59,108 nucleotides of DNA from a virus (Duplodnaviria > Caudoviricetes). The position numbers and the translations under genes were made by a program. Positions 15,304-24,676 of the stretch are shown piece by piece. Position 1 is the first letter of the stretch. Every line of letters begins with the position of its first letter. The stretch is taken from IMG/VR virus record IMGVR_UViG_3300011187_000010, positions 1 to 59,108 of that record; one strand, 5' to 3'. Under the pieces are notes generated by a model, which worked only from the letters and a program-made list of their open reading frames with translations, was not told the origin of the DNA and made no database searches.

Positions 15304-16086
15304 TCATGAATTCTTAATTAACTTGTAAAGTCCTAAATTATTATGTCTTAATCTTCTTATCGCTTTTTCTTTTATTTGTCTTATTCTTTCTTTAGTTAAG
15401 TCGTATCTATCACCTATTGCTTCTAGAGTCATCGGCTCAACCTTTGTATTAAGACCATAATAACATTCTATAATACCACGTTCTCTATTAGTTAAACAAT
15501 CCATTGTTTTATTTAATACCTTTTTTAGTCTATCACTTTCATCACTAAATGTATCTGTTAAATCTTCTTCACTTGATATAGTATCTTCTAGTGCGAAGCC
15601 AGTATATTCACCCATCTCCTTATTTAAAGAGACACAGCTTGGGTATTCCTTTGGTATTGATTCTAAATACTCTTCATTTTCTTTCTCTAGCTGACTTATT
15701 TTGTTGATAACACTAGATGGTAATCTTATAACCCTAGAATTATCGTTGAGGCTTTGCATAATTGATTGTCTAATCCAATACACTGCATATGATATAAACC
15801 TAAAACCTCTTGTGGGGTCAAATTTATTGGCCGCTTTAATTAATCCGATATTACCATCATTTATTAAATCACTTAGTGATAAACCTAGGCCTTGATACTC
15901 TTTAGCTACGCTGATTGCAAATTTTAGGTTACCTTCAACTAATTCATTTATCGCCTCTTTATCACCATTAACTATTCTATTGGTTAGTTCGTTTTCTTCT
16001 TCAATACTTAATAGGTCACACTTGTTAACTTCGTTAAAATATCTAGTTATTGTGTCGCTTTTTTCTGCTACTATAAATCTTTTCAT
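15304..16086 (-). CDS. rpoD: phage-encoded RpoD/SigA-family sigma factor lacking region 1.1
   Basis: Region 2 (NLKFAISVAKEYQG..DLINDGNIGLIKAANKFDPTRGFRFISYAVYWIRQSI) and region 4 (TLEAIGDRYDLTKERIRQIKEKA). Confidence 0.93.
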   Translation of the reverse strand: MKRFIVAEKSDTITRYFNEVNKCDLLSIEEENELTNRIVNGDKEAINELVEGNLKFAISVAKEYQGLGLSLSDLINDGNIGLIKAANKFDPTRGFRFISYAVYWIRQSIMQSLNDNSRVIRLPSSVINKISQLEKENEEYLESIPKEYPSCVSLNKEMGEYTGFALEDTISSEEDLTDTFSDESDRLKKVLNKTMDCLTNRERGIIECYYGLNTKVEPMTLEAIGDRYDLTKERIRQIKEKAIRRLRHNNLGLYKLIKNS

Positions 16087-16094
16087 TCATTTTC

Positions 16095-16562
16095 TTATAA
16101 GGTTGCAAGAAAGCTTAAAGCTTCCTTTTGGTTAACTGTAAGTTCATTAATGTTATTTAATAATTTATCCATTAATAAACTCCTTTCTTTATCATCTAAT
16201 GATGATAACTCTTTTTCATCGTAAGAATCTTTTAAAGTTACTTTTTTTTCATTTTCATCTTCGTAACCCTTTTGATTTTCTACGTCCAGTTCGTTGAACA
16301 TTACGTTATGTATTTCTCTATCGTCAATGTGAGCGGTAAAGGTTTTATTATTCATTTCTGATATAAAAAAACTTCTATTACCTATATTTAATATTTCTTT
16401 CACTCTACTAATATCTAACTCAGTTTTAAAGGTCGCTACCAACGCTGTGTCTTTGCGACCCTTTAAAACCTTTACAGGCTCTACTGATATATTATCTAAA
16501 TCATCACTTAAACCTTTAATATTATCCATTGCAATAATACAAAATGTTTTCACATCCATCAT
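16095..16562 (-). CDS. hypothetical protein (155 aa)
   Basis: ORF track. Confidence 0.8.
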   Translation of the reverse strand: MMDVKTFCIIAMDNIKGLSDDLDNISVEPVKVLKGRKDTALVATFKTELDISRVKEILNIGNRSFFISEMNNKTFTAHIDDREIHNVMFNELDVENQKGYEDENEKKVTLKDSYDEKELSSLDDKERSLLMDKLLNNINELTVNQKEALSFLATL

Positions 16563-16577
16563 TTATCTTGTTTTGCA

Positions 16578-16609
16578 CCAAGATACTATATTTTGCTACT
16601 AAAAACAAG
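16578..16609 (-). promoter_or_regulatory. Bacteroidota-type promoter upstream of the hypothetical-sigma factor pair
   Basis: CTTG-N20-TATCTTGG. Confidence 0.6.
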
Positions 16610-16611
16610 TA

Positions 16612-18849
16612 TTATAGTTTTATAGATGATATGTTATCAACCTTTTTAACTGTAATAACTTTATCTGACCAATCCTTAACTAAATCATTGTGGGTTATGA
16701 AGAATACAATATCAAACATACCTTTAATTTTTTCAAACATAGGTCTCACTTTTTCTATGTTATCTGCCGCTAGTTTACCTAGTACCTCATCAAAGGTTAT
16801 GAAGTTAGGCTTTGGTAAATGAGATATTTTACTTAACACACATCTAAGAGCTAAGCTTGATATCGTTCTCTCTAGGCCACTACCAGACTTTAATAACTTA
16901 GTTACATCATTTTTAATGATATGATACTCAACATCATTTTTATTTGTCATAACTAATTCCACCTCAAAGTCACATACATCATCTAACAACCTTTGTATCT
17001 CTGAATTTATTATTGGTAGTACTGACCTCAACACTAACTTACTAATACCCTTTTTACCAACCAACTGAAGATATATTTTGAATATTTTTTCTACTTCCTC
17101 TTCACGTTTTAAGGTCTTAATCATTTTAAGGTTTTTAGTTAACTCCTCCTTAGCTGATTTGATGTTTTGCTTAGTAGTGAATATGTTCTGGTTGATTTCT
17201 GATTTAGTGTTATTTTCAACGACTAAATTAGTTTTTACTGCTGAGACATTAGATTCTATTGTAATGTTAGTTTTAATAGCATCCTCATTACTTTTATATT
17301 TTTTCAAATCTGCTTTTTTAGAAACTATCTTATTTCTTAACGCCCCTATTTCGACTTCAGCTTTGTCGCACTCTAATTCTAACCTGTCTCTTCTATCAAC
17401 GACATCTCTATTCTCCTTAATTTTAGTTATCGATTTCTGAACCCTTGCTAACTTATTTTCTTTTTTAGTTAAATCATTTTTCAATGACTCTATCTTTTCT
17501 TCATATTCCTTTATTGTTTCCGAGTTGTCAACATCATCTAAAGGTCTTTTACACGTCTCACAGATTTCACTGTCTCTAAGGTTATCAATCATCTTGCCAA
17601 ATGACATGATGTCATTCTTGTAAGACCCTATCTTTATTGATATATCTCTATCTTCCTTAGTTAGTTTATCATATTTATATTCGTCGTAATTAACATCTTT
17701 GATTTCAGCAATCTTAGTCTTAAACTCTTCAATTTTATTTTTGTAGGTAACACCTTTCTTAGTTATTGTGTCAATATCACCTTCTAACTTTTCAGGGTTT
17801 AAGTCTGATACTTCAGAATCTATTTTTAATTTACTATTTATTAACCTTTCTTTTTCATCCTCTAACCTTTGTATTGTTTTTTCAGAAGCATCCAGTTTTT
17901 TAGTATACTCTACGACCTCTTTTTCATATAAACCTATATTTTCCTCAAGAGTTTCATTATCGTTAAGTAAAGTAGTTACATCGTAATGATTACCTTTTTT
18001 TAGTTTGTTAAATTCAGAGTTCATATCTTTAGCTATTTGCTCTTTGGCTTCTATAAGCTCTAATCCAATGAATCTAGTCAGTAACCTACCACTCTCAGTT
18101 GGTTTAGCATCGATTAAGTCTTCTAAGTTCCTAGCAGTAGTTAGAATGGTTATATCAAAATCTTTTTCACTACCAATATTATTCTGAATTACCTGTCCAG
18201 TTTTCTTAGCGTCTTCGTCATTCAATAACACCTCCTCACCATCAGGTAGTAATTCGTAGTAATTTACTTTATTTGTTGTGTTCCAACCTTTACCACCTCT
18301 TTTTGGTCGTCTATTTAATTTACGCTCAATAATCATTTCATTACCTTCGACCTCAATCATACCTCTAACAGTTAATTCGTCCTTGTCAGTAAATGTATTG
18401 AATATTTGTTCGTTCTTATCGGTTTTAGTAGTTTTACCAAATAATAAGAATTTAATCGCATCTACAGTGAAAACCGTGTTATGAGATACAATATCATTTG
18501 AGTAATATTGATGAACTTCAGATACTTGTACATCATATAAAGTATCTCGCTCATCTAACAACTTAATTGACTTAACATTTGAAATTCCATCTCTAACTTG
18601 GATAGGAGTTCCTATTTCAATATTCTTTAAAACTGTGAAATCACCATCCTCTTTTTTTAATCTATGATAATCAGCACCTTCAACATACGCACCATTTTCT
18701 AATTCACATTTATATACCTCGGCATTTTCTTCAGTTATACCGCACCATTCAATATCGTGAAAACCATATGGTGTGTCAACTTGAAACCCCAAATCACCAT
18801 ATTTTTCAAAAATATCATTTAATTTACCTATCTCAATTTCTTTAATCAT
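16612..18849 (-). CDS. split-intein C fragment fused to the Rad50/SbcC (gp46-like) C-extein
   Basis: The first 124 aa form a Hint C-part ending IVSHN|T. Then coiled coil, zinc hook CETC, signature SGLE, Walker B FITFDE and H-loop ITHN. Confidence 0.92.
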   Translation of the reverse strand: MIKEIEIGKLNDIFEKYGDLGFQVDTPYGFHDIEWCGITEENAEVYKCELENGAYVEGADYHRLKKEDGDFTVLKNIEIGTPIQVRDGISNVKSIKLLDERDTLYDVQVSEVHQYYSNDIVSHNTVFTVDAIKFLLFGKTTKTDKNEQIFNTFTDKDELTVRGMIEVEGNEMIIERKLNRRPKRGGKGWNTTNKVNYYELLPDGEEVLLNDEDAKKTGQVIQNNIGSEKDFDITILTTARNLEDLIDAKPTESGRLLTRFIGLELIEAKEQIAKDMNSEFNKLKKGNHYDVTTLLNDNETLEENIGLYEKEVVEYTKKLDASEKTIQRLEDEKERLINSKLKIDSEVSDLNPEKLEGDIDTITKKGVTYKNKIEEFKTKIAEIKDVNYDEYKYDKLTKEDRDISIKIGSYKNDIMSFGKMIDNLRDSEICETCKRPLDDVDNSETIKEYEEKIESLKNDLTKKENKLARVQKSITKIKENRDVVDRRDRLELECDKAEVEIGALRNKIVSKKADLKKYKSNEDAIKTNITIESNVSAVKTNLVVENNTKSEINQNIFTTKQNIKSAKEELTKNLKMIKTLKREEEVEKIFKIYLQLVGKKGISKLVLRSVLPIINSEIQRLLDDVCDFEVELVMTNKNDVEYHIIKNDVTKLLKSGSGLERTISSLALRCVLSKISHLPKPNFITFDEVLGKLAADNIEKVRPMFEKIKGMFDIVFFITHNDLVKDWSDKVITVKKVDNISSIKL
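18478..18849 (-). mobile_element. IntC of an atypically split intein (124 aa)
   Basis: Block B (VEGADYHRL), block F (LYDVQV), block G (YYSNDIVSHN), +1 Thr; no block A. Confidence 0.9.
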
Positions 18850-19268
18850 AATATTTCTTGTAATTTAAAAAATTCTTGGATTATGTTTTCACCACCTCTT
18901 TCATTCCAACATTTGATGAAATATTCTGGTGTAACTCCATAATTTTTACTAAAACTTTCAACTGTCCCATTACTACCCCTCAAATGTCTATGGAAAGGTG
19001 TGTTTATATCAATTTTAACCTCTAATCTAGTATTTTTATTTATTTTACTAACTTCATTAAAATTTATCTTTTCTATTGTGAATTTATTACCCCTTAATTT
19101 ATCTTTCGATACTATGCGATTATCTGATAAATTGAAAACATTTTCAATTTGTAAAAACGGTGAACACCCACTTACCATGACTAAATATTTAATATCAGGA
19201 TAACTATCTTGGGTGTATAAATAAATGCCACTTCCCATTTCATTAATTTCAATTTTAGTTTTTTTCAT
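18846..19268 (-). CDS. hypothetical protein inserted between the split-intein halves
   Basis: ORF track; stop overlaps the IntC start; no endonuclease motif recognised. Confidence 0.75.
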   Translation of the reverse strand: MKKTKIEINEMGSGIYLYTQDSYPDIKYLVMVSGCSPFLQIENVFNLSDNRIVSKDKLRGNKFTIEKINFNEVSKINKNTRLEVKIDINTPFHRHLRGSNGTVESFSKNYGVTPEYFIKCWNERGGENIIQEFFKLQEIL

Positions 19269-19271
19269 AAT

Positions 19272-19385
19272 TTAAATTTTTTTACACTTATCTATAACTT
19301 TTTGTTTATTTCCTAATCTATATTCTGACCCCAAAATATATAAAACCCTCTTTATTGGTAATATCTAATTTGTTTTTAATCTTTT
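19272..19385 (-). pseudogene. possible remnant of a Vsr/DUF559-like homing endonuclease C-terminus
   Basis: Two frames give KIKNKLDITNKEGF and LYILGSEYRLGNKQKVIDKCKKI*, resembling the GF.V..IWE.EY....K.I.KC ending of such nucleases. Confidence 0.4.
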
Positions 19386-19407
19386 AATGATTACACTAGG
19401 GTCCACA

Positions 19408-19986
19408 TTATTTTAATTCTTCAGGTATGAAACCCAATTTTTTCTCTATTTCATCTAAATCGTATTTTATAACTATCTTAGAGTCAGCTCTTAAGCATTT
19501 ACCACCTTGATTAGGTGGTTCTGAATTGACAACATTGAGTCCATTCAACCTACTGAATGAAGCAAAGTTCTTATCACCAAAGGATAAGAAGTTATCTATG
19601 TATAACCACTTTAAACTCCATGACCTATGGTTTTCTACAGAGACATCACTATCACCCAAAGATGCATTAACTTTTTTATCTAAATCTAATATTCTTTTGA
19701 AATCAACATCTTTTTCCTCACGCTTACACCATTCTTTCATCAATTCTACTTGGTAATTTCTGTCAAGAATATTATCGACACCAGCGCCACTAATTTCAAT
19801 GACTTCACCACCCTTACCTATTTTAACAGGTCGGTAAATCACATTAATATTGGCTTTAGTGATACCATACTTTTTACTGAAGTAATCTCTTACTTTTAGT
19901 TTATTCTGTCTAGAATAGTTTTCTGGTCTATCATCCCAATATACTTTAACTTTTGCGTACTCTGGTATTATTACATTATCACTCAT
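19408..19986 (-). CDS. Mre11-C-terminal-like domain + Rad50/SbcC N-extein + split-intein N fragment (ORF track start 20025)
   Basis: WSLKWLYIDNFLSFG (SbcC N-terminus) and Walker A ..NQGGK followed directly by CLRADSKI (intein block A) and a stop after 29 aa. Confidence 0.9.
   Translation of the reverse strand: MSDNVIIPEYAKVKVYWDDRPENYSRQNKLKVRDYFSKKYGITKANINVIYRPVKIGKGGEVIEISGAGVDNILDRNYQVELMKEWCKREEKDVDFKRILDLDKKVNASLGDSDVSVENHRSWSLKWLYIDNFLSFGDKNFASFSRLNGLNVVNSEPPNQGGKCLRADSKIVIKYDLDEIEKKLGFIPEELK
19411..19497 (-). mobile_element. IntN of an atypically split intein (29 aa)
   Basis: CLRADSKIVIKYDLDEIEKKLGFIPEELK*, immediately after the Walker A Lys. Confidence 0.88.
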
Positions 19987-19996
19987 TGTATTCTTT

Positions 19997-20512
19997 TTAT
20001 CTTTCACCGTAGATATCATATCCACCTTTATTTTTACACTCTTTTAATTCCTTACTTAATATATCGTTTTTATTCTTACAGGATGACAAACCTTTACTGA
20101 TTTCATCTACCTGAGACTTATAATCGTTTATGAGACTTTCTTTCTTTTTATTCTCAACTTCCAACGTGGCCTTATCGTCACTCAACTTATCTATGTATTC
20201 TAGATAACTCATGTTATTGCCGTCTACATTTATACTAACATTTTTTTCGACAGGCACCTCTACTATTTTTTCTACAGGTACTTCAACCCTTTTCTCAACT
20301 ATTTTTTCTACTGGTACCTCTTTTATAACCTCTACAGTCTTCTCTACTGGCTCTTCTCTTACTTTTGGACCACTAGGTGTCATTCCATATTGTAATATCG
20401 TGAAGCCGCTCTTTAGCGCCTCATTTAGTGTCTTACCCACGTCCTCTTCATTAAGCCTACAGTAGGCCACTATTTCGTCGAATAGCTCTTTATTTATGAG
20501 TCTCTTACCCAT
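19997..20512 (-). CDS. hypothetical protein with (EVPVEKIV) repeats and coiled coil
   Basis: PVEKTVEVIKEVPVEKIVEKRVEVPVEKIVEVPVEK. Confidence 0.85.
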   Translation of the reverse strand: MGKRLINKELFDEIVAYCRLNEEDVGKTLNEALKSGFTILQYGMTPSGPKVREEPVEKTVEVIKEVPVEKIVEKRVEVPVEKIVEVPVEKNVSINVDGNNMSYLEYIDKLSDDKATLEVENKKKESLINDYKSQVDEISKGLSSCKNKNDILSKELKECKNKGGYDIYGER

Positions 20513-20825
20513 TAGTTAATGTTTCAGTACCTTCTTCTAATTCATCAAGTGATTTTATCTTAAATTGATAAAACCCGTATCTATTCTCAACATCTTTCTC
20601 AATGTACGTTCTTGTTTCAACGTCCCATATTAAGTAACCGTGACTTTTAATCGATTCACCAAAATTTTGTTGAATTAATGAACTACTAAAACACATTGGG
20701 ATTATTTTTTTTATTTTAATTTTTTTCATTTTATAGCTATTATATTGACATTCTCTAGTGCAATATTTTTGCACCTTTCGTTTAGCGTTATATTCATTAC
20801 CACACTTTTCACATTTTTTACGCAT
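20505..20825 (-). CDS. Mre11/SbcD (gp47-like) phosphoesterase, second fragment, with an N-terminal Zn-finger remnant (alternative start 20729)
   Basis: SSLIQQNFGE..HGYLIWD continues the SbcD fold. Residues 1-32 are CxxC...YCTREC, typical of homing-endonuclease N-termini. Confidence 0.82.
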   Translation of the reverse strand: MRKKCEKCGNEYNAKRKVQKYCTRECQYNSYKMKKIKIKKIIPMCFSSSLIQQNFGESIKSHGYLIWDVETRTYIEKDVENRYGFYQFKIKSLDELEEGTETLTNG

Positions 20826-20834
20826 ATCTAAAAT

Positions 20835-20869
20835 TTTGTTGTATTATTATTTATTAATAATACAACAAA
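20835..20869. promoter_or_regulatory. perfect 15-bp hairpin between the two Mre11 fragments
   Basis: TTTGTTGTATTATTA-TTTAT-TAATAATACAACAAA. Confidence 0.75.
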
Positions 20870-20881
20870 TTTGAAAAGAAG

Positions 20882-21565
20882 CTATTCATCGATAACCCAA
20901 CCATTTTTTTTATAAATTTCTAATTCTGTTTCATCAATTTCTTTTCTTTCAACGTTATAAAAACAACTTCTTTTGTGTATATCACCAAGTAGTACCATAT
21001 CACAACCATCGAAATGGTTTAATTGGGTGTGATTGTCATCAAATATATATCCTACATCTGTAGATGCCCCAGCTATAGGGGCGTGGTATAATCCAATGTA
21101 AGTTTTATCATCACCATGCTTGGCCCTACCCTCTTCAATATCAGGTCTTTCATTACCCTCAAATATTGAATAATTACACCACACAACATTGTCGTCTAAA
21201 TAACAGGTACTTTCTTGGTAGTATGCTATGTGTGGATTGTCTAACAATTCAATCATAGGTGATATACTATCAACTCTATCTTTATTATTCTCTAGTAAAT
21301 CATGGTTACCAGCTATAATAACAACTTTACCGACCTTTGATAGTTCTCTCAGGAACCACGTGCTAAGTATTAGTTGTTCATTTGATATCGTTATTTTTTG
21401 ATGTACCAAGTCGCCCACTATTGCTATGCGAATTTCTTCGTGTTTATAGTCTTTACAATACTCAGTTATTTCATCAATGAATGTTTGGAATATTTCTTTA
21501 TACTCGTCATGCATCCTATATGTTCTAATATGAACGTCAGCTAAATGTATCACGGATTTAATCAT
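20882..21565 (-). CDS. Mre11/SbcD (gp47-like) phosphoesterase, first fragment
   Basis: HLADVH, VGDLVH, AGNHD, GLYHAP and LGDIHK motifs; stops before the GSLIQQ motif. Confidence 0.92.
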   Translation of the reverse strand: MIKSVIHLADVHIRTYRMHDEYKEIFQTFIDEITEYCKDYKHEEIRIAIVGDLVHQKITISNEQLILSTWFLRELSKVGKVVIIAGNHDLLENNKDRVDSISPMIELLDNPHIAYYQESTCYLDDNVVWCNYSIFEGNERPDIEEGRAKHGDDKTYIGLYHAPIAGASTDVGYIFDDNHTQLNHFDGCDMVLLGDIHKRSCFYNVERKEIDETELEIYKKNGWVIDE

Positions 21566-21581
21566 AAGTTTTATTTTACAT

Positions 21582-21613
21582 CAAATGTACTATTTTTATC
21601 TAACTTTAACAAG
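21582..21613 (-). promoter_or_regulatory. Bacteroidota-type promoter for the Mre11/Rad50 locus
   Basis: CTTG-N20-TACATTTG. Confidence 0.7.
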
Positions 21614-21727
21614 TTTCCTTATATTATTAACATGAATAACATAGAGTGAAGAAAGTATATTAAATATCAATTAATTTTGAATAGTTAAATGTCTTTACAA
21701 TATGTATTATCTTTTTTATCATACTTT

Positions 21728-22042
21728 CTATATTAAATTAATTATAATAGGATTTACGGTAAATTCATCGACTGTAACTGAACCGATAGAATTAATCGTC
21801 ACTTTTTGACCAGTACATCCTATTATATCTGGTAATGTTATTGCATCATATTCTTCATCAATACCTTCAACAAATAAAAAATGTTGTTGCCCAGTACTTT
21901 CATTGATGACCACAACTCTTTCATGGTCAATTAAATTGGCCTCATCCATCAATTCGTAACTTAGGTTTATAACTCCCATGTTATTTAGTGAACTGTTTAA
22001 TACCCTACCTGTAATCTTTGATTTTAAAACTTCTATTTTCAT
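21728..22042 (-). CDS. PanD (aspartate 1-decarboxylase)-like protein lacking the self-cleavage Ser
   Basis: MKIEVLKSKI...MGVINLSYELMDEANLIDHERVVVIN..TG aligns with PanD, but Gly-Ser is Gly-Val. Confidence 0.75.
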   Translation of the reverse strand: MKIEVLKSKITGRVLNSSLNNMGVINLSYELMDEANLIDHERVVVINESTGQQHFLFVEGIDEEYDAITLPDIIGCTGQKVTINSIGSVTVDEFTVNPIIINLI

Positions 22043-22051
22043 ATTTTATCT

Positions 22052-24022
22052 TTAACAATTTAACCACCATGGACCTTCTTTAGGTTTAGGTTCAACGTAA
22101 TTCTCTAAATTATAAACTCTCTTTTCCTCAGCTGCTATATCATCTTCTTTCTTTTTCATAACCTCATCAATTCTAGGTAGAGGTGGCATTGTCATAACAG
22201 TATTAATGAATTTTTTTGGTACTCTAATTTCTTTGTAGGTCCCAAATGCAGTTAAGTGTACAATTATACACCCAAATAGTTTGATATCCTCATATTTAGT
22301 ACCTTTTAACATATCTAAAATTAGTCTAGCATATAAAGGTAATTGTATTTTATAATGGGCTAACGAAGTATCCATTTCATCCTCAAAAGGAGGTAGCATT
22401 GGTGTTGTGTAATGATGTACCTCAAAGTTTTTCTCTTTATTGGTGTTATGAGTTACCAATAAAGATTTCCCACATAAAAATGTGCTACTCGGACTATCTA
22501 CTTCGATACACTTAGTTGGTACTGACTCAACTTCTTCTACTGACACAATAGACCTAAAGGTTCTTCTATCTTTTTTAAGGTTTAAAACTAAATCTTGGTT
22601 TCTAGATAGAAATGGATTAAAATTATCTGTTACAAATGATGCTCTATAACATTTATTTACTTTACCGTTAAACTTCTTATTAAAATTAGATTTAGTTACC
22701 TTAAGACCTAATGAAGATGATATTTCAGTAAAATAATCAACCTGTGTTTCTCTTGTACTTTCCATAACGAAACTTTGTCTAGTTTTATTATATGTACCAT
22801 CACTATCCATTAAACCCCTTAATAAATCTAGTCGCTGATTGTATGAACTAGATAAATAAATTTCTGGTATATGTTTGTTTTGTAACAATAAATTTTTACG
22901 TAATTTATTTTGTAAATCAAATACTGTTCTAGTGGTAGCTTTTCCAGCACCACCTTGCGATAAATCATCACCAATAGTATACCCTCTTTTTATTATCTCT
23001 TCCCATACCTTTTCATTTGCTTCTGTAATTTTAGCATCAACACTATGACCATCACCTAACCAAAGACCTAAAACATAAGGGTCAATCGGTAATTTAATTT
23101 CTGGGTTGTTTAATGGTTTTGCATTTTTAATTTTCAATATATTATATGATTGTCTCTTACTTAAAGAATTATTGTAATCTTTAATTTCTTGAGTTGTCAT
23201 AACCATCTCTTTAATTACCCCAGAATTTTCCCTATAAACTAACCACCTATGTTCAAAATCAGAAATAATTTCTTCATTATTATCAAAAATAATTTTTAAA
23301 CATTTCTTATTTTTAACTTTAGAAATATTCATAATATTAACTAAATTACCATCCTTATCATAAACTTGGTCATTATTTGTTAATGTACCCATAGTCTTCC
23401 ACCCATCACTAGTTAAAATAGGTGTATCTAGTGGTAAACCTTTCCAATCGGTAACTATGAAACCCAGTTCACCTTCTTTATTGTGAATTAACCACACTTT
23501 ATCTGGTTGGCCAGTGTATTTTAATGTGTTACTACCTAACACCATTTCAGTGTCTAATAAAACCGCACCTCTTCTGTGCATAGCGTTGATAAATTTATGA
23601 CCAGCATCAATCATCGCATTTCCATCACTAACCTGCTGCTCATCACAATTATATATCGGTTGTCTAACATCTTTATAACTTCCATATTGAGCTAATAAGT
23701 CTTTTTCTAAAAGATAGTGAACTCTAGAACCTTTGGAGTTGGCGTAATCTGCTGTCGCTCTCCATTCCTTTAATAATTTATCTTGTTCATGTATGTCGTT
23801 TTCACACATCTCTAAAGACTTTTCTAATTCTGGAAAACCTTCATAAAATTGTTTTATAACAGTGGATACTGAAGGAAATTTACTTGTCATTTCACCTTCC
23901 AGTGTCTCTATATAATAGGTGTGAGTGTCTTCAATAAAACTAAGTTTTAACTCTTTTTGTTTAAGACTTATTAAATCTCTTATTTCTTTACCTATTTTAG
24001 TTAGTTCTTCTTTTCTAATCAT
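22052..24022 (-). CDS. PD-(D/E)XK exonuclease-like protein with an intein
   Basis: FIEDTHTY, PSVSTVI, GSRVH, GQPDK..VTDWK|T, HYKIQLPLYA. Confidence 0.9.
   Translation of the reverse strand: MIRKEELTKIGKEIRDLISLKQKELKLSFIEDTHTYYIETLEGEMTSKFPSVSTVIKQFYEGFPELEKSLEMCENDIHEQDKLLKEWRATADYANSKGSRVHYLLEKDLLAQYGSYKDVRQPIYNCDEQQVSDGNAMIDAGHKFINAMHRRGAVLLDTEMVLGSNTLKYTGQPDKVWLIHNKEGELGFIVTDWKGLPLDTPILTSDGWKTMGTLTNNDQVYDKDGNLVNIMNISKVKNKKCLKIIFDNNEEIISDFEHRWLVYRENSGVIKEMVMTTQEIKDYNNSLSKRQSYNILKIKNAKPLNNPEIKLPIDPYVLGLWLGDGHSVDAKITEANEKVWEEIIKRGYTIGDDLSQGGAGKATTRTVFDLQNKLRKNLLLQNKHIPEIYLSSSYNQRLDLLRGLMDSDGTYNKTRQSFVMESTRETQVDYFTEISSSLGLKVTKSNFNKKFNGKVNKCYRASFVTDNFNPFLSRNQDLVLNLKKDRRTFRSIVSVEEVESVPTKCIEVDSPSSTFLCGKSLLVTHNTNKEKNFEVHHYTTPMLPPFEDEMDTSLAHYKIQLPLYARLILDMLKGTKYEDIKLFGCIIVHLTAFGTYKEIRVPKKFINTVMTMPPLPRIDEVMKKKEDDIAAEEKRVYNLENYVEPKPKEGPWWLNC
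22445..23440 (-). mobile_element. class 3 intein (332 aa) with LAGLIDADG endonuclease
   Basis: Starts GLPLDTPI and ends LVTHN|T. WCT triad: HRW, KCIEV, THN. LAGLIDADG motifs PYVLGLWLGDG and LLRGLMDSDG. Confidence 0.92.
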
Positions 24023-24037
24023 TTAACCCATTTCAGC

Positions 24038-24068
24038 CAAATATACTAGATTTTTTCAACAAAGACAA
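24038..24068 (-). promoter_or_regulatory. Bacteroidota-type promoter, back-to-back with a putative late promoter at 24070-24077 (+)
   Basis: TTG-N20-TATATTTG on the minus strand; TATTTATA on the plus strand. Confidence 0.65.
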
Positions 24069-24097
24069 CTATTTATAATGTAAACCGTATTAATAGA

Positions 24098-24676
24098 ATG
24101 AGACTATCTAAATTATATAGTGAAGTTGTAAATGAAAGTTTTAGTTTACAACCTGACCCTTCTTGTGATTGTTGCAAATACTTTGATTTTACTTTCTCTC
24201 AAGCTGGTGGTCAATTCACTGGTTTAGAAAAACCTTTATATCAAGAAATATCTAAAGGTGAAAAGCATGAGTTGCAATATATAAAACCAAAACAATACAT
24301 CTACAATATTGCTAGAGGTTTTGGTGGACTTAGTTATGAAGACGTTGTTGATTCTGGTGCGGTGAGTAAAGAAGCTGTAATTAAGTACGCTAAGGCCATG
24401 AAAAATGGTGAAAAATTTCCAATAGGTTGGTATAAAGTAGATTCTGGTAGTCAAGAAGGTAGACATAGAGCTTTAGCGGCCATTGAATTGGGTTGTAATA
24501 GTATTCCTGTCGTGGTCATAACAACTCTTGATTATGAAGATAGGTTAGATATTGCTGAAAAATATAAAGGTTTATCCAAAGAAGAATTAAATCAAATTTA
24601 CATTAATAAAGGTTATAATGGTATAACTGGTTTAGGTTGGAATGACTTGCAAAGATTTATAAATTATAATATATGA
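24098..24676 (+). CDS. ParB/Srx-like domain protein
   Basis: KYAKAMKNGEKFP...QEGRHRALAAIELGCNSIPV. Confidence 0.8.
   Translation: MRLSKLYSEVVNESFSLQPDPSCDCCKYFDFTFSQAGGQFTGLEKPLYQEISKGEKHELQYIKPKQYIYNIARGFGGLSYEDVVDSGAVSKEAVIKYAKAMKNGEKFPIGWYKVDSGSQEGRHRALAAIELGCNSIPVVVITTLDYEDRLDIAEKYKGLSKEELNQIYINKGYNGITGLGWNDLQRFINYNI

Follow-up and report, generated by a model that had tools for sequence, protein, structure and literature searches.

Our analysis of the window, a 59,108-nucleotide (nt) stretch that is the whole of virus record IMGVR_UViG_3300011187_000010 (Duplodnaviria; Caudoviricetes), suggests that its minus strand most likely carries the fractured Mre11/SbcD-type nuclease gene of a large freshwater phage, in which an invading cassette supplied an acidic tail to the end of the upstream half (fragment A) and a basic head to the start of the downstream half (fragment B), and whose halves would assemble as two polypeptides. 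An earlier note on this DNA, made from its letters without database searches, had proposed a nuclease split without intein or intron and had read the tail and head as complementary parts of a small docking domain, possibly an undescribed and portable adaptor. The record is a 59-kb contig to which CheckV assigns a completeness of 17%, and because relatives are found on contigs of up to 380 kb its source is probably a jumbo phage. The window DNA is present in lake-water and salt-lake metagenomes, and no RNA data set was among those listed as containing it. A megablast search with positions 16000-24500 returned no match to a phage record, and relatives were found at the protein level only.

Fragments A and B are evidently two halves of one Mre11/SbcD-type nuclease gene (Table 1), because unsplit relatives of 265-278 amino acids (aa) (L006-L021 and P0003; L and P numbers are our own labels for relatives) run continuously across the break, where they read ...GDIHKRQ-VFDYKG-IPIAYPSSLIQQNFGE..., and they finish in the same ...LTNG as B. 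Fragment B is collinear with the C-terminus of these relatives, the core of the unsplit P0003 is 84% identical to the window's A, and comparison with the unsplit forms places native Mre11 sequence up to about residue 204 of A (CFYN) and again from IIPMCF in B. Fragment A matches the Pfam family Metallophos (PF00149) at 32.4 bits, against a curated cut-off of 21.5, and phrog_100 ('SbcD-like') with an E-value of 6e-14. The metal-ligand motifs of Mre11/SbcD enzymes are D-x-H, G-D, G-N-H-D, H and G-x-x-H. In 25 split homologues residues D10, H12, G51, D52, G86-N87-H88-D89, H161 and G194-D195-I196-H197 of A are invariant, in agreement with the earlier claim that this fragment holds every metal-binding motif up to GDIH, after which 30 more residues precede the TAG stop. 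Together A and B would be expected to have Mn-dependent nuclease activity. That B resumes the nuclease fold after MKKIKIKK also held up, but its first 32 residues belong neither to the nuclease nor to the head and instead make up an endonuclease stub. The product of B may be the 74-aa form begun at the internal ATG, the 106-aa fusion with the zinc ribbon, or both.

Table 1. Coordinates of the fractured nuclease gene and of the elements at its break, as positions in the window (ORF, open reading frame).
Feature	Positions	Strand	Description
ORF A (fragment A)	20882..21565	minus	N-terminal part of the Mre11/SbcD-type nuclease plus tail; 227 aa, C-terminal end ...GDIHKRSCFYNVERKEIDETELEIYKKNGWVIDE; all phosphoesterase motifs through GDIH; TAG stop at 20882-20884
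Acidic tail	20885..20953	minus	A residues 205-227 (VERKEIDETELEIYKKNGWVIDE), net charge -4; about 23 residues beyond the unsplit short alleles
Gap from A stop to ATG	20826..20881	minus	56 nt; aligns with the A-stop-to-ATG spacers of L034 and L049, being the kept 5' leader of the endonuclease gene
Leader hairpin	20835..20869	minus	15-bp stem, 5-nt loop
ORF B	20505..20825	minus	106 aa; internal ATG at 20727-20729 reading MKKIKIKKIIPMCFSSSLIQQNFGE...; end ...LTNG
Homing-endonuclease stub	20730..20825	minus	Start codon and 32 codons; first zinc ribbon (CxxC...CxxxC), fused in frame to B
Fragment B proper	20505..20729	minus	C-terminal part of the nuclease, counted from the internal ATG (74 aa): head followed by IIPMCFSSSLIQQNFGE..., end ...LTNG
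Basic head	20706..20729	minus	MKKIKIKK, 8 residues beyond the unsplit short alleles

The break itself is genuine. After the stop of ORF A the next ATG on the minus strand lies at 20823-20825, and the reading frame changes across the gap. Contigs from two other runs span the junction (X2, covering 20450-21608, and X6, covering 20450-21645; of the further runs, X5 covers only 20450-20837 and X9 gave no contig) with 4 and 5 substitutions and with neither indels nor joints, and the IMG/VR contigs L004 and L005, whose A is 97% identical to the window's, share the same stop codon. An assembly error is therefore rejected, and with it the sequencing error joining A and B that the earlier note had named as a possible refutation. 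Layout and the Pfam and Rfam scans agree that the halves lie 56 nt apart with no intein or intron between them. The Rfam scan over 20300-21800 returned no group I or II intron, and no other family, at E <= 1 (only three sub-threshold chance matches were seen), and in a gap of this length an intron was rejected as well.

The extra residues of the tail and head, as defined against the unsplit P0003 and L006-L021, are a conserved and oppositely charged pair. Net charge runs from -2 to -10 (mean -4.5) in 64 tails and from +3 to +6 (mean +4.6) in 59 heads. The motif KIKIK occurs in all 59 free B fragments, in 52 of them within 5 residues of the listed start, and K3, I4, K5, I6 and K7 of the head are invariant in 35 aligned B fragments. 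Within the tail L215, Y218 and W223 are invariant, and E209, I210, E212, E214, K220 and G222 at least 90% conserved, in the 25 split homologues; the first residue of the tail, a Cys in the window, varies among the 64 tails. Across 16 split lineages, which include the fused Mre11-Rad50 forms L001, L114, L117 and L121, mean identity is 37% in the core and 40% in the tail. Both elements are absent from the unsplit short alleles. The acidic tail and basic head of the earlier note are therefore real, and their conservation and co-occurrence with the split can be regarded as established by these alignments.

ORF B also preserves the probable cause of the split. From residue 1 its start is identical to that of a 305-aa endonuclease in relative L034 at 33 of 46 positions (BLASTP, E 5e-19), the stub being residues 1-32 (MRKKCEKCG...YNSYK). 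Conversely, a tblastn-type search of the window with the L034 endonuclease gave a single match, at 20691-20825, which covers query residues 1-46 only, and the stub region further matches the zinc-ribbon part of phrog_1271. The leaders of the window, L034 and L049 have the elements TCTTTTCA...TTGTTGT...ACAACAAAATTTTAGA..ATG in common. In the window the predicted fold of 20810-20900 (minus strand) has a minimum free energy of -17.5 kcal/mol (z -2.96, with 1 of 200 shuffles equally stable), and the L034 and L049 leaders have weaker forms of the same hairpin stem. Relatives carry intact endonuclease ORFs of 293-309 aa between A-like and B-like ORFs with homologous tail and head (L034, L047, L049, L057, L009, L023, L024 and LR756508/L001), and these are free-standing homing-endonuclease genes whose products are predicted to have cleavage activity. 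The 3' end of the endonuclease gene overlaps the downstream half by 7-34 nt in L108-L111, L114, L115 and L117, an overlap that is lost in the window. Other relatives retain the opposite end of the gene: the 280-nt spacer of L004/L005, read by eye alone, encodes a C-terminal part of the endonuclease, and in P0122 endonuclease residues 200-299 (84% identity) run in frame into a B with 99% identity to that of the window. Because the window keeps an N-terminal stub, and L004/L005 and P0122 C-terminal parts, the window and its nearest kin appear as different deletion derivatives of one endonuclease gene. On the evidence of sequence comparison, then, we regard as established both the anatomy of the gene and the derivation from the endonuclease of the spacer and the first 32 codons of B, and the earlier idea that an endonuclease invaded this Mre11 gene is borne out by the intact genes at the same site.

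Two types of endonuclease occupy this site. Type 1 (L034, L049 and L057) gives weak, sub-threshold Pfam matches to Vsr, PvuRts1I-like and DUF559 families, and no Pfam match above cut-off was obtained for its nuclease domain. Type 2 has a TnsA-like PD-(D/E)xK domain, which scores 27.2 bits in L001 (cut-off 26.5) and 21.5 bits in L047. The N-terminal zinc-ribbon pairs of the two types are homologous (34% identity over 89 residues, E 6e-10), and this looks like a swap of the nuclease domain on one DNA-binding module. Both types are seen at the same Mre11 site (L034, L047, L049, L057 and L001) with unrelated nuclease domains, Vsr-like in one and TnsA-like in the other. Among 60 loci with relatives of the type-1 endonuclease, tail- and head-like ends were found at 11 Mre11 loci only and at none of the other 49, as judged by eye reading of the ends and by a crude pattern that missed the tails of L114, L115, L117 and L121. 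Split inteins or structural genes adjoin some of those 49. Of the type-2 relatives away from Mre11, the two that were read (L025 and L026) lie between intact genes and are without tail or head. The notion of a portable adaptor that serves other genes thus found no support, the pair having been found at Mre11 only. Separately, in L126 and L147 a type-1 endonuclease relative follows an ORF that ends ...NHN/T and precedes a RecA-like C-terminal part, and these are probably further genes fractured within a split intein.

The split form is common. A search with A gave 1073 matches at E <= 1e-5, and among the best 120, which were classed, 64 are tail-bearing A fragments (210-245 aa) and 56 are unsplit; matches to B comprise 59 free B fragments and 4 pieces of unsplit genes. 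In IMG/VR we surveyed the best 80 of 183 loci, several of which are duplicates or near-copies. Sixty are unsplit, including L045 and L046, which are contiguous 304-aa genes with both tail and head; 16 are split, with spacers of varying length; and 4 are unclassified (L037/L038, evidently unsplit at 271 aa, and L062 and L104, which are cut by contig ends). Measured from the A stop to the SSLIQQ motif, the spacers of the 16 split loci are about 1 kb in 11, 331 nt in 2, 129 nt in 1 and 56 nt in 2. An endonuclease ORF is present in every inspected locus with a spacer of about 1 kb, and the 56-nt spacers correspond to 4 nt from stop to ATG, that is, to a split that is free of endonuclease (L051/L052). 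In one more contig the source-supplied coordinates imply a 10-nt spacer. A codon alignment of 9 split loci gives a ratio of non-synonymous to synonymous substitution rates (dN/dS) of about 0.13 for the core. Since the split form is frequent, its catalytic residues are invariant and its core dN/dS is this low, it appears to be a maintained state and not one of decay.

Both of our trees came from quick searches, and intragenic recombination could distort them. The core tree (quick IQ-TREE search; 121 rows, columns after GDIH left out, and P0071 dropped with too short a core) implies 14 changes between split and unsplit, at least 5 of which are forced by branches with at least 95% support. The unsplit P0003 and P0005 group with the window's A. 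In a clade supported at 99% the contiguous L045 stands among 44 split sequences, and because it is nested there it is best read as a secondary re-fusion. A second tree was built from representatives at 50% identity, with 126 of 150 rows usable (those dropped had a missing motif, a truncation or N-terminal inserts), and its 14 split-labelled rows, two of which (P0226 and P0279) are truncations and not tail-bearers, need 14 changes and scatter like shuffled labels. The block of tail, endonuclease and head is heterologous to the short allele, so that in homing its three parts would be copied together. The scattered occurrence of the split form fits such transfer of the whole block, without proving it.

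Structure prediction suggests how the tail and head might fit the nuclease. In the AlphaFold2 model of the unsplit, short P0003 (predicted local distance difference test, pLDDT, 95.1) GDIH is followed by a hairpin of 5+5 residues, with strands at 199-203 and 206-210. In that of the contiguous, long L045 (pLDDT 92.8; predicted template modelling score 0.89) the same region becomes a strand at 200-211, a helix at 212-220, a strand at 224-227, a turn and a strand at 233-244, and the break of the split forms falls in the turn before this last strand. The top Foldseek matches of the L045 model, a contiguous relative used in place of the window's two chains, are Mre11/SbcD structures at E ~1e-10 (3qg5, 7dog and 3thn; 3qg5_D 7e-11, 7dog_B 1e-10). 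A complex prediction of the kind suggested in the earlier note, A with the 74-aa B begun at 20729, had a score of 0.91 in three runs, where the best of 3 controls had 0.01; among solved complexes 58 of 80 attain 0.91, and among mismatched pairs 2 of 110, counts that are only rough as the runs used alignments of their own. The three runs have at least 87% of contacts in common and a partner pLDDT of at least 66. In the model residues 185-212, 215, 218 and 221-227 of A contact B 1-19, B 32-37 packs against the first strand of A, and the head MKKIKIKK touches A residues 200-212, so that tail and head are predicted to touch each other. The pass may owe much to likeness with solved Mre11/SbcD structures, given that A and B are halves of one domain. 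Natural re-fusions place a linker of 1-5 residues between the end of the tail and the start of the head, and these short linkers, like the fusions of endonuclease remnants to B in the window and P0122, agree with a break at an exposed junction at the tip of the ribbon. Of the re-association that had been proposed between acidic tail and basic head, the contact is thus supported by modelling, but an independent docking domain is not, and the pair is more aptly seen as lengthening the beta-hairpin that Mre11 already has.

We can therefore outline how the locus may have arisen and how it would function. A free-standing homing endonuclease gene, whose product has a Vsr-like nuclease domain behind two or three zinc ribbons at its N-terminus, would have inserted at the tight beta-hairpin turn after the last metal-binding motif (GDIH). 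The cassette would have ended A with about 23 tail codons plus a stop, opened B with a start and about 8 head codons, and placed between them the endonuclease gene preceded by its hairpin leader. In the window's lineage a later internal deletion would have removed endonuclease codons 33 to the end, leaving the leader, the ATG and one zinc ribbon in frame with B. Neither RNA nor protein splicing would be involved; A and B would be separate polypeptides that co-fold into one phosphoesterase domain, with the strands of B fitting into the beta-sandwich of A. The native 5+5 hairpin would be lengthened to an antiparallel ribbon of about 12+12 residues, in which A 200-211 pairs with the KIKIKK head and the strand that follows it, and the ribbon would be capped by the tail helix and a short GW strand, the acidic tail and basic head offering complementary charges. 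It is plausible from the models that tail and head act in this way as a re-association module. The clasp would have the modelled geometry and would presumably be needed.

Several points weigh against this interpretation. Non-covalent assembly, activity and dependence on the tail are what we infer for this locus, and the complex score is the one expected for two halves of a known fold and is silent on any need for tail and head. The tail evolves faster than the core, with a dN/dS of about 0.45 in the 9 split loci (over only 24 codons, and with dS near saturation), so the constraint on it is moderate. A Shine-Dalgarno-like sequence is not evident before either ATG of B, which bears on the choice of its start, and the label 'Vsr-like' derives from sub-cut-off Pfam matches and a description of 2009. 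Lastly, contiguous genes with both tail and head exist (L045/L046, P0186, P0247, P0259, P0326 and P0328), and the insert could therefore be a native Mre11 feature older than the split.

This last point leads to the alternative that survives best, which we nevertheless judge unlikely: that the insert belongs to Mre11 itself as an elaboration of its hairpin that varies between lineages, was at first in one piece and not cassette-borne, and offered an exposed turn in which endonucleases later landed. Several deep lineages have contiguous inserts that follow this pattern (acidic helix, G-W/F strand, short turn, basic strand), carried by the 299-aa P0186 and by the fused Mre11-Rad50 proteins P0247, P0259, P0326 and P0328, and in L045/L046 the insert is predicted to fold well as a single chain. 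However, L045 lies inside the well-supported clade of 44 split sequences, so that it at least is a re-fusion; the split form is scattered among short unsplit alleles in the core tree, with the forced changes given above, and is as scattered as random labels in the tree of 50% representatives; and the window's own A is closely similar to the unsplit P0003. With the caution that is due to quick-search trees, which recombination could mislead, vertical descent explains this scatter less well than does a transfer into short alleles of the block as a whole.

That the gene is simply broken, a decaying pseudogene left behind by the endonuclease with no working two-piece nuclease, we regard as highly improbable. 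The endonuclease itself is decaying in the window and B has no obvious ribosome-binding site, but in dozens of lineages both halves are present with intact catalytic motifs, the core is under the constraint described above, the head is invariant, the endonuclease-free split persists with its 4-nt spacer in L051/L052, and the partner Rad50 gene downstream has been maintained.

It is scarcely credible that A and B are ligated by protein trans-splicing, with tail and head as the vestige of a split intein or a minimal form of one. A Cys does open the window's tail, the neighbouring Rad50 gene has a real split intein, an acidic N-piece and basic C-piece are described for split inteins in the relevant part of Dassa et al. 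(PMC2677866), and the idea was raised for NrdA in that of Crona et al. (PMC3045599). Against this, the residue that follows KR(S/Q/G), the first inserted one, varies across the 64 tails between C, L, S, V, F, K and others (e.g. SLFLH, QSFNH, GVLNF), none of the 59 heads has His-Asn, ...KIKIKK(I)IP... running directly into Mre11 sequence, and neither A nor B has a Hint or intein Pfam match at E <= 0.1. At 23 + 8 (about 31) residues the insert is far too small for an intein fold, and the models give a beta-ribbon continuous with Mre11's own hairpin.

Bypass by the ribosome over the 56-nt gap, or another form of recoding that yields one polypeptide as at T4 gene 60, deserves almost no credence. 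At gene 60 matched take-off and landing codons flank the gap, and the stop and take-off codon lie inside the hairpin. The window does have a gap of about 50 nt after a stop codon with a stable hairpin inside it, but this hairpin starts 12 nt past the stop and not over a take-off codon, it has its homologue in the leader of the endonuclease in relatives with a 1-kb insert, GAA (the last sense codon) is missing at the 3' end of the gap, and the same tail and head are kept with spacers of 4 nt, 129 nt, 331 nt and about 1 kb, which a signal specific to this gap cannot explain. Elements of the gene-60 type are, for their part, reported to travel with a mobile endonuclease, in the portion of bioRxiv 10.1101/2022.08.31.505936 that concerns them.

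A two-piece nuclease with cassette-supplied ends has close precedents, so that the adaptor was not as undescribed as the earlier note supposed: an SbcD-like case appears in PMC2677866 and the principle of the tails in PMC3045599. In the part of their paper that treats fractured genes, Dassa et al. (2009, PMC2677866) report from the Lake Gatun Global Ocean Sampling (GOS) metagenome an SbcD-like gene fractured by a Vsr-like endonuclease, with no intein and with 25 C-terminal and 9 N-terminal extra residues at the break that are absent from unsplit homologues. They further describe hairpins upstream of such endonuclease genes, and endonuclease 3' ends that overlap the downstream half. Their locus resembles the window's family in its two halves, its lack of an intein, its extra residues and its freshwater habitat, and is very probably of the same gene family, and its extra residues may match the window's tail and head in sequence as well as in position. 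It differs in that its endonuclease is free-standing, whereas that of the window is reduced to a leader and a 32-codon stub fused to B; the account covers a single locus and, within that part, gives the extra residues no role. The same authors describe genes fractured within split inteins that have the same cassette (hairpin leader, endonuclease, downstream overlap). The window's Rad50 is of this kind, but its Mre11 break differs in being without intein features. Our literature search on split Mre11/SbcD found no paper later than Dassa et al.

The tails themselves have a parallel in NrdA-a/NrdA-b of phage Aeh1, for which the pertinent section of Crona et al. (2010, PMC3045599) states that tails derived from mobE are essential, proposes electrostatic pairing and a general mechanism, and suggests that similar tails elsewhere have been overlooked. 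As in the window, an essential enzyme gene was split by a free-standing endonuclease, is unspliced and has unique C- and N-terminal tails that stem from the insertion. In contrast, Aeh1 combines a ribonucleotide reductase with an HNH endonuclease, a host protein and an endonuclease family unlike the window's, and its tails were found by experiment to be essential for dimerisation and not for the a/b heterodimer, whereas those of the window are modelled as an extended beta-hairpin within one domain.

At T4 gene 39/60 the mobA cassette carries along a 50-nt bypass that neutralises the damage to its host gene. There too a mobile cassette brings the remedy, which is translational (ribosome hopping) in T4 and would act at the protein level in the window. 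Solved Mre11/SbcD structures (PDB 3qg5, 7dog, 4lty) have the same fold and metal motifs and a Rad50/SbcC partner nearby, but each consists of one chain in which the last motif is followed by a short hairpin, whereas the window's family, about 270 aa when unsplit, is here in two pieces. New in this work are the recognition of the leader and of the stub with its zinc ribbon, the size of the family, the presence of two endonuclease families at a single site, the series of decay and re-fusion, and the model of a hairpin extension. The mechanism suggested in the earlier note is plausible and now better grounded, but is not new in principle.

Downstream of the Mre11 gene lie Rad50-like ORFs at 19408-20025 and 16612-18849 (minus strand), the fractured Rad50 lying three genes downstream. 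Their zinc-hook match of 18.7 bits is below the cut-off of 24.3, and they are 60-69% identical to the Rad50 of L051. This Rad50-like gene (16612-20025, minus strand) is fractured within an intein in its P-loop (...NQGGK/CLRADS...), which is split atypically, with about 29 residues on the N-piece (19408-20025) and about 124, ending ...VSHN/T, on the C-piece (16612-18849). Neither Pfam nor PHROG gave a match for a 140-aa ORF (18846-19268) that lies inside the break. L051 has this intein in one piece, and L009, L045 and L068 have none at that site. Mre11 and Rad50 are separate genes in the window's family, with one or two small ORFs between them, and in many distant relatives they are fused into a protein of about 1050-1100 aa (L001 (LR756508), L002 (LR756501), L003 (Microcystis phage Mel-JY01) and P0204). 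Three Mre11 homologues of 551-1372 aa (P0283, P0285 and P0246) are interrupted in their N-terminal half by a large insert that may be an intein, and P0283 is also tail-ended. On the other side of the Mre11 gene, the first 54 residues of an adjoining 104-aa ORF (21728-22042, minus strand) match aspartate decarboxylase PF02261 at 31.5 bits (cut-off 25). Beyond it a 656-aa ORF (22052-24022, minus strand) has an insert of about 340 aa with LAGLIDADG and weak intein-splicing Pfam matches, which starts G-L-P-L-D-T, with no Cys, Ser or Thr first, and ends ...LVTHN/T; its intein-free homologue has 317 aa (L034, 1530-2483). This insert may be a non-canonical or inactive intein.

For annotation, these results would make the hundreds of ORFs listed in metagenomes as 'truncated SbcD' or as 74-aa 'hypothetical' the two parts of a single functional nuclease and not pseudogenes. 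For the study of mobile elements they offer a natural series, from intact endonuclease to stub, to a clean two-gene split and to re-fusion, in which to follow survival without splicing; how a gene outlives such an invasion is the question that Crona et al. raised for NrdA. The principle already known is unchanged, and is broadened and made easier to test. We also put forward, tentatively and with some doubt, that selection maintains the clasp as a part of the mobile element carried by its cassette: two zinc-ribbon endonuclease families would carry the same kit of 23 + 8 residues into Mre11 alleles that are about 35% identical, the nuclease would be kept working after the endonuclease decays, and re-fusion would proceed through the kit. 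If true, this would be the best-populated natural case of a mobile element that delivers a protein-level repair for the gene it breaks, and the kit of tail and head would be a minimal natural split-protein adaptor. Were the clasp both needed and sufficient, its 23 + 8 residues re-zipping a beta-hairpin would be a compact template for split-protein design.

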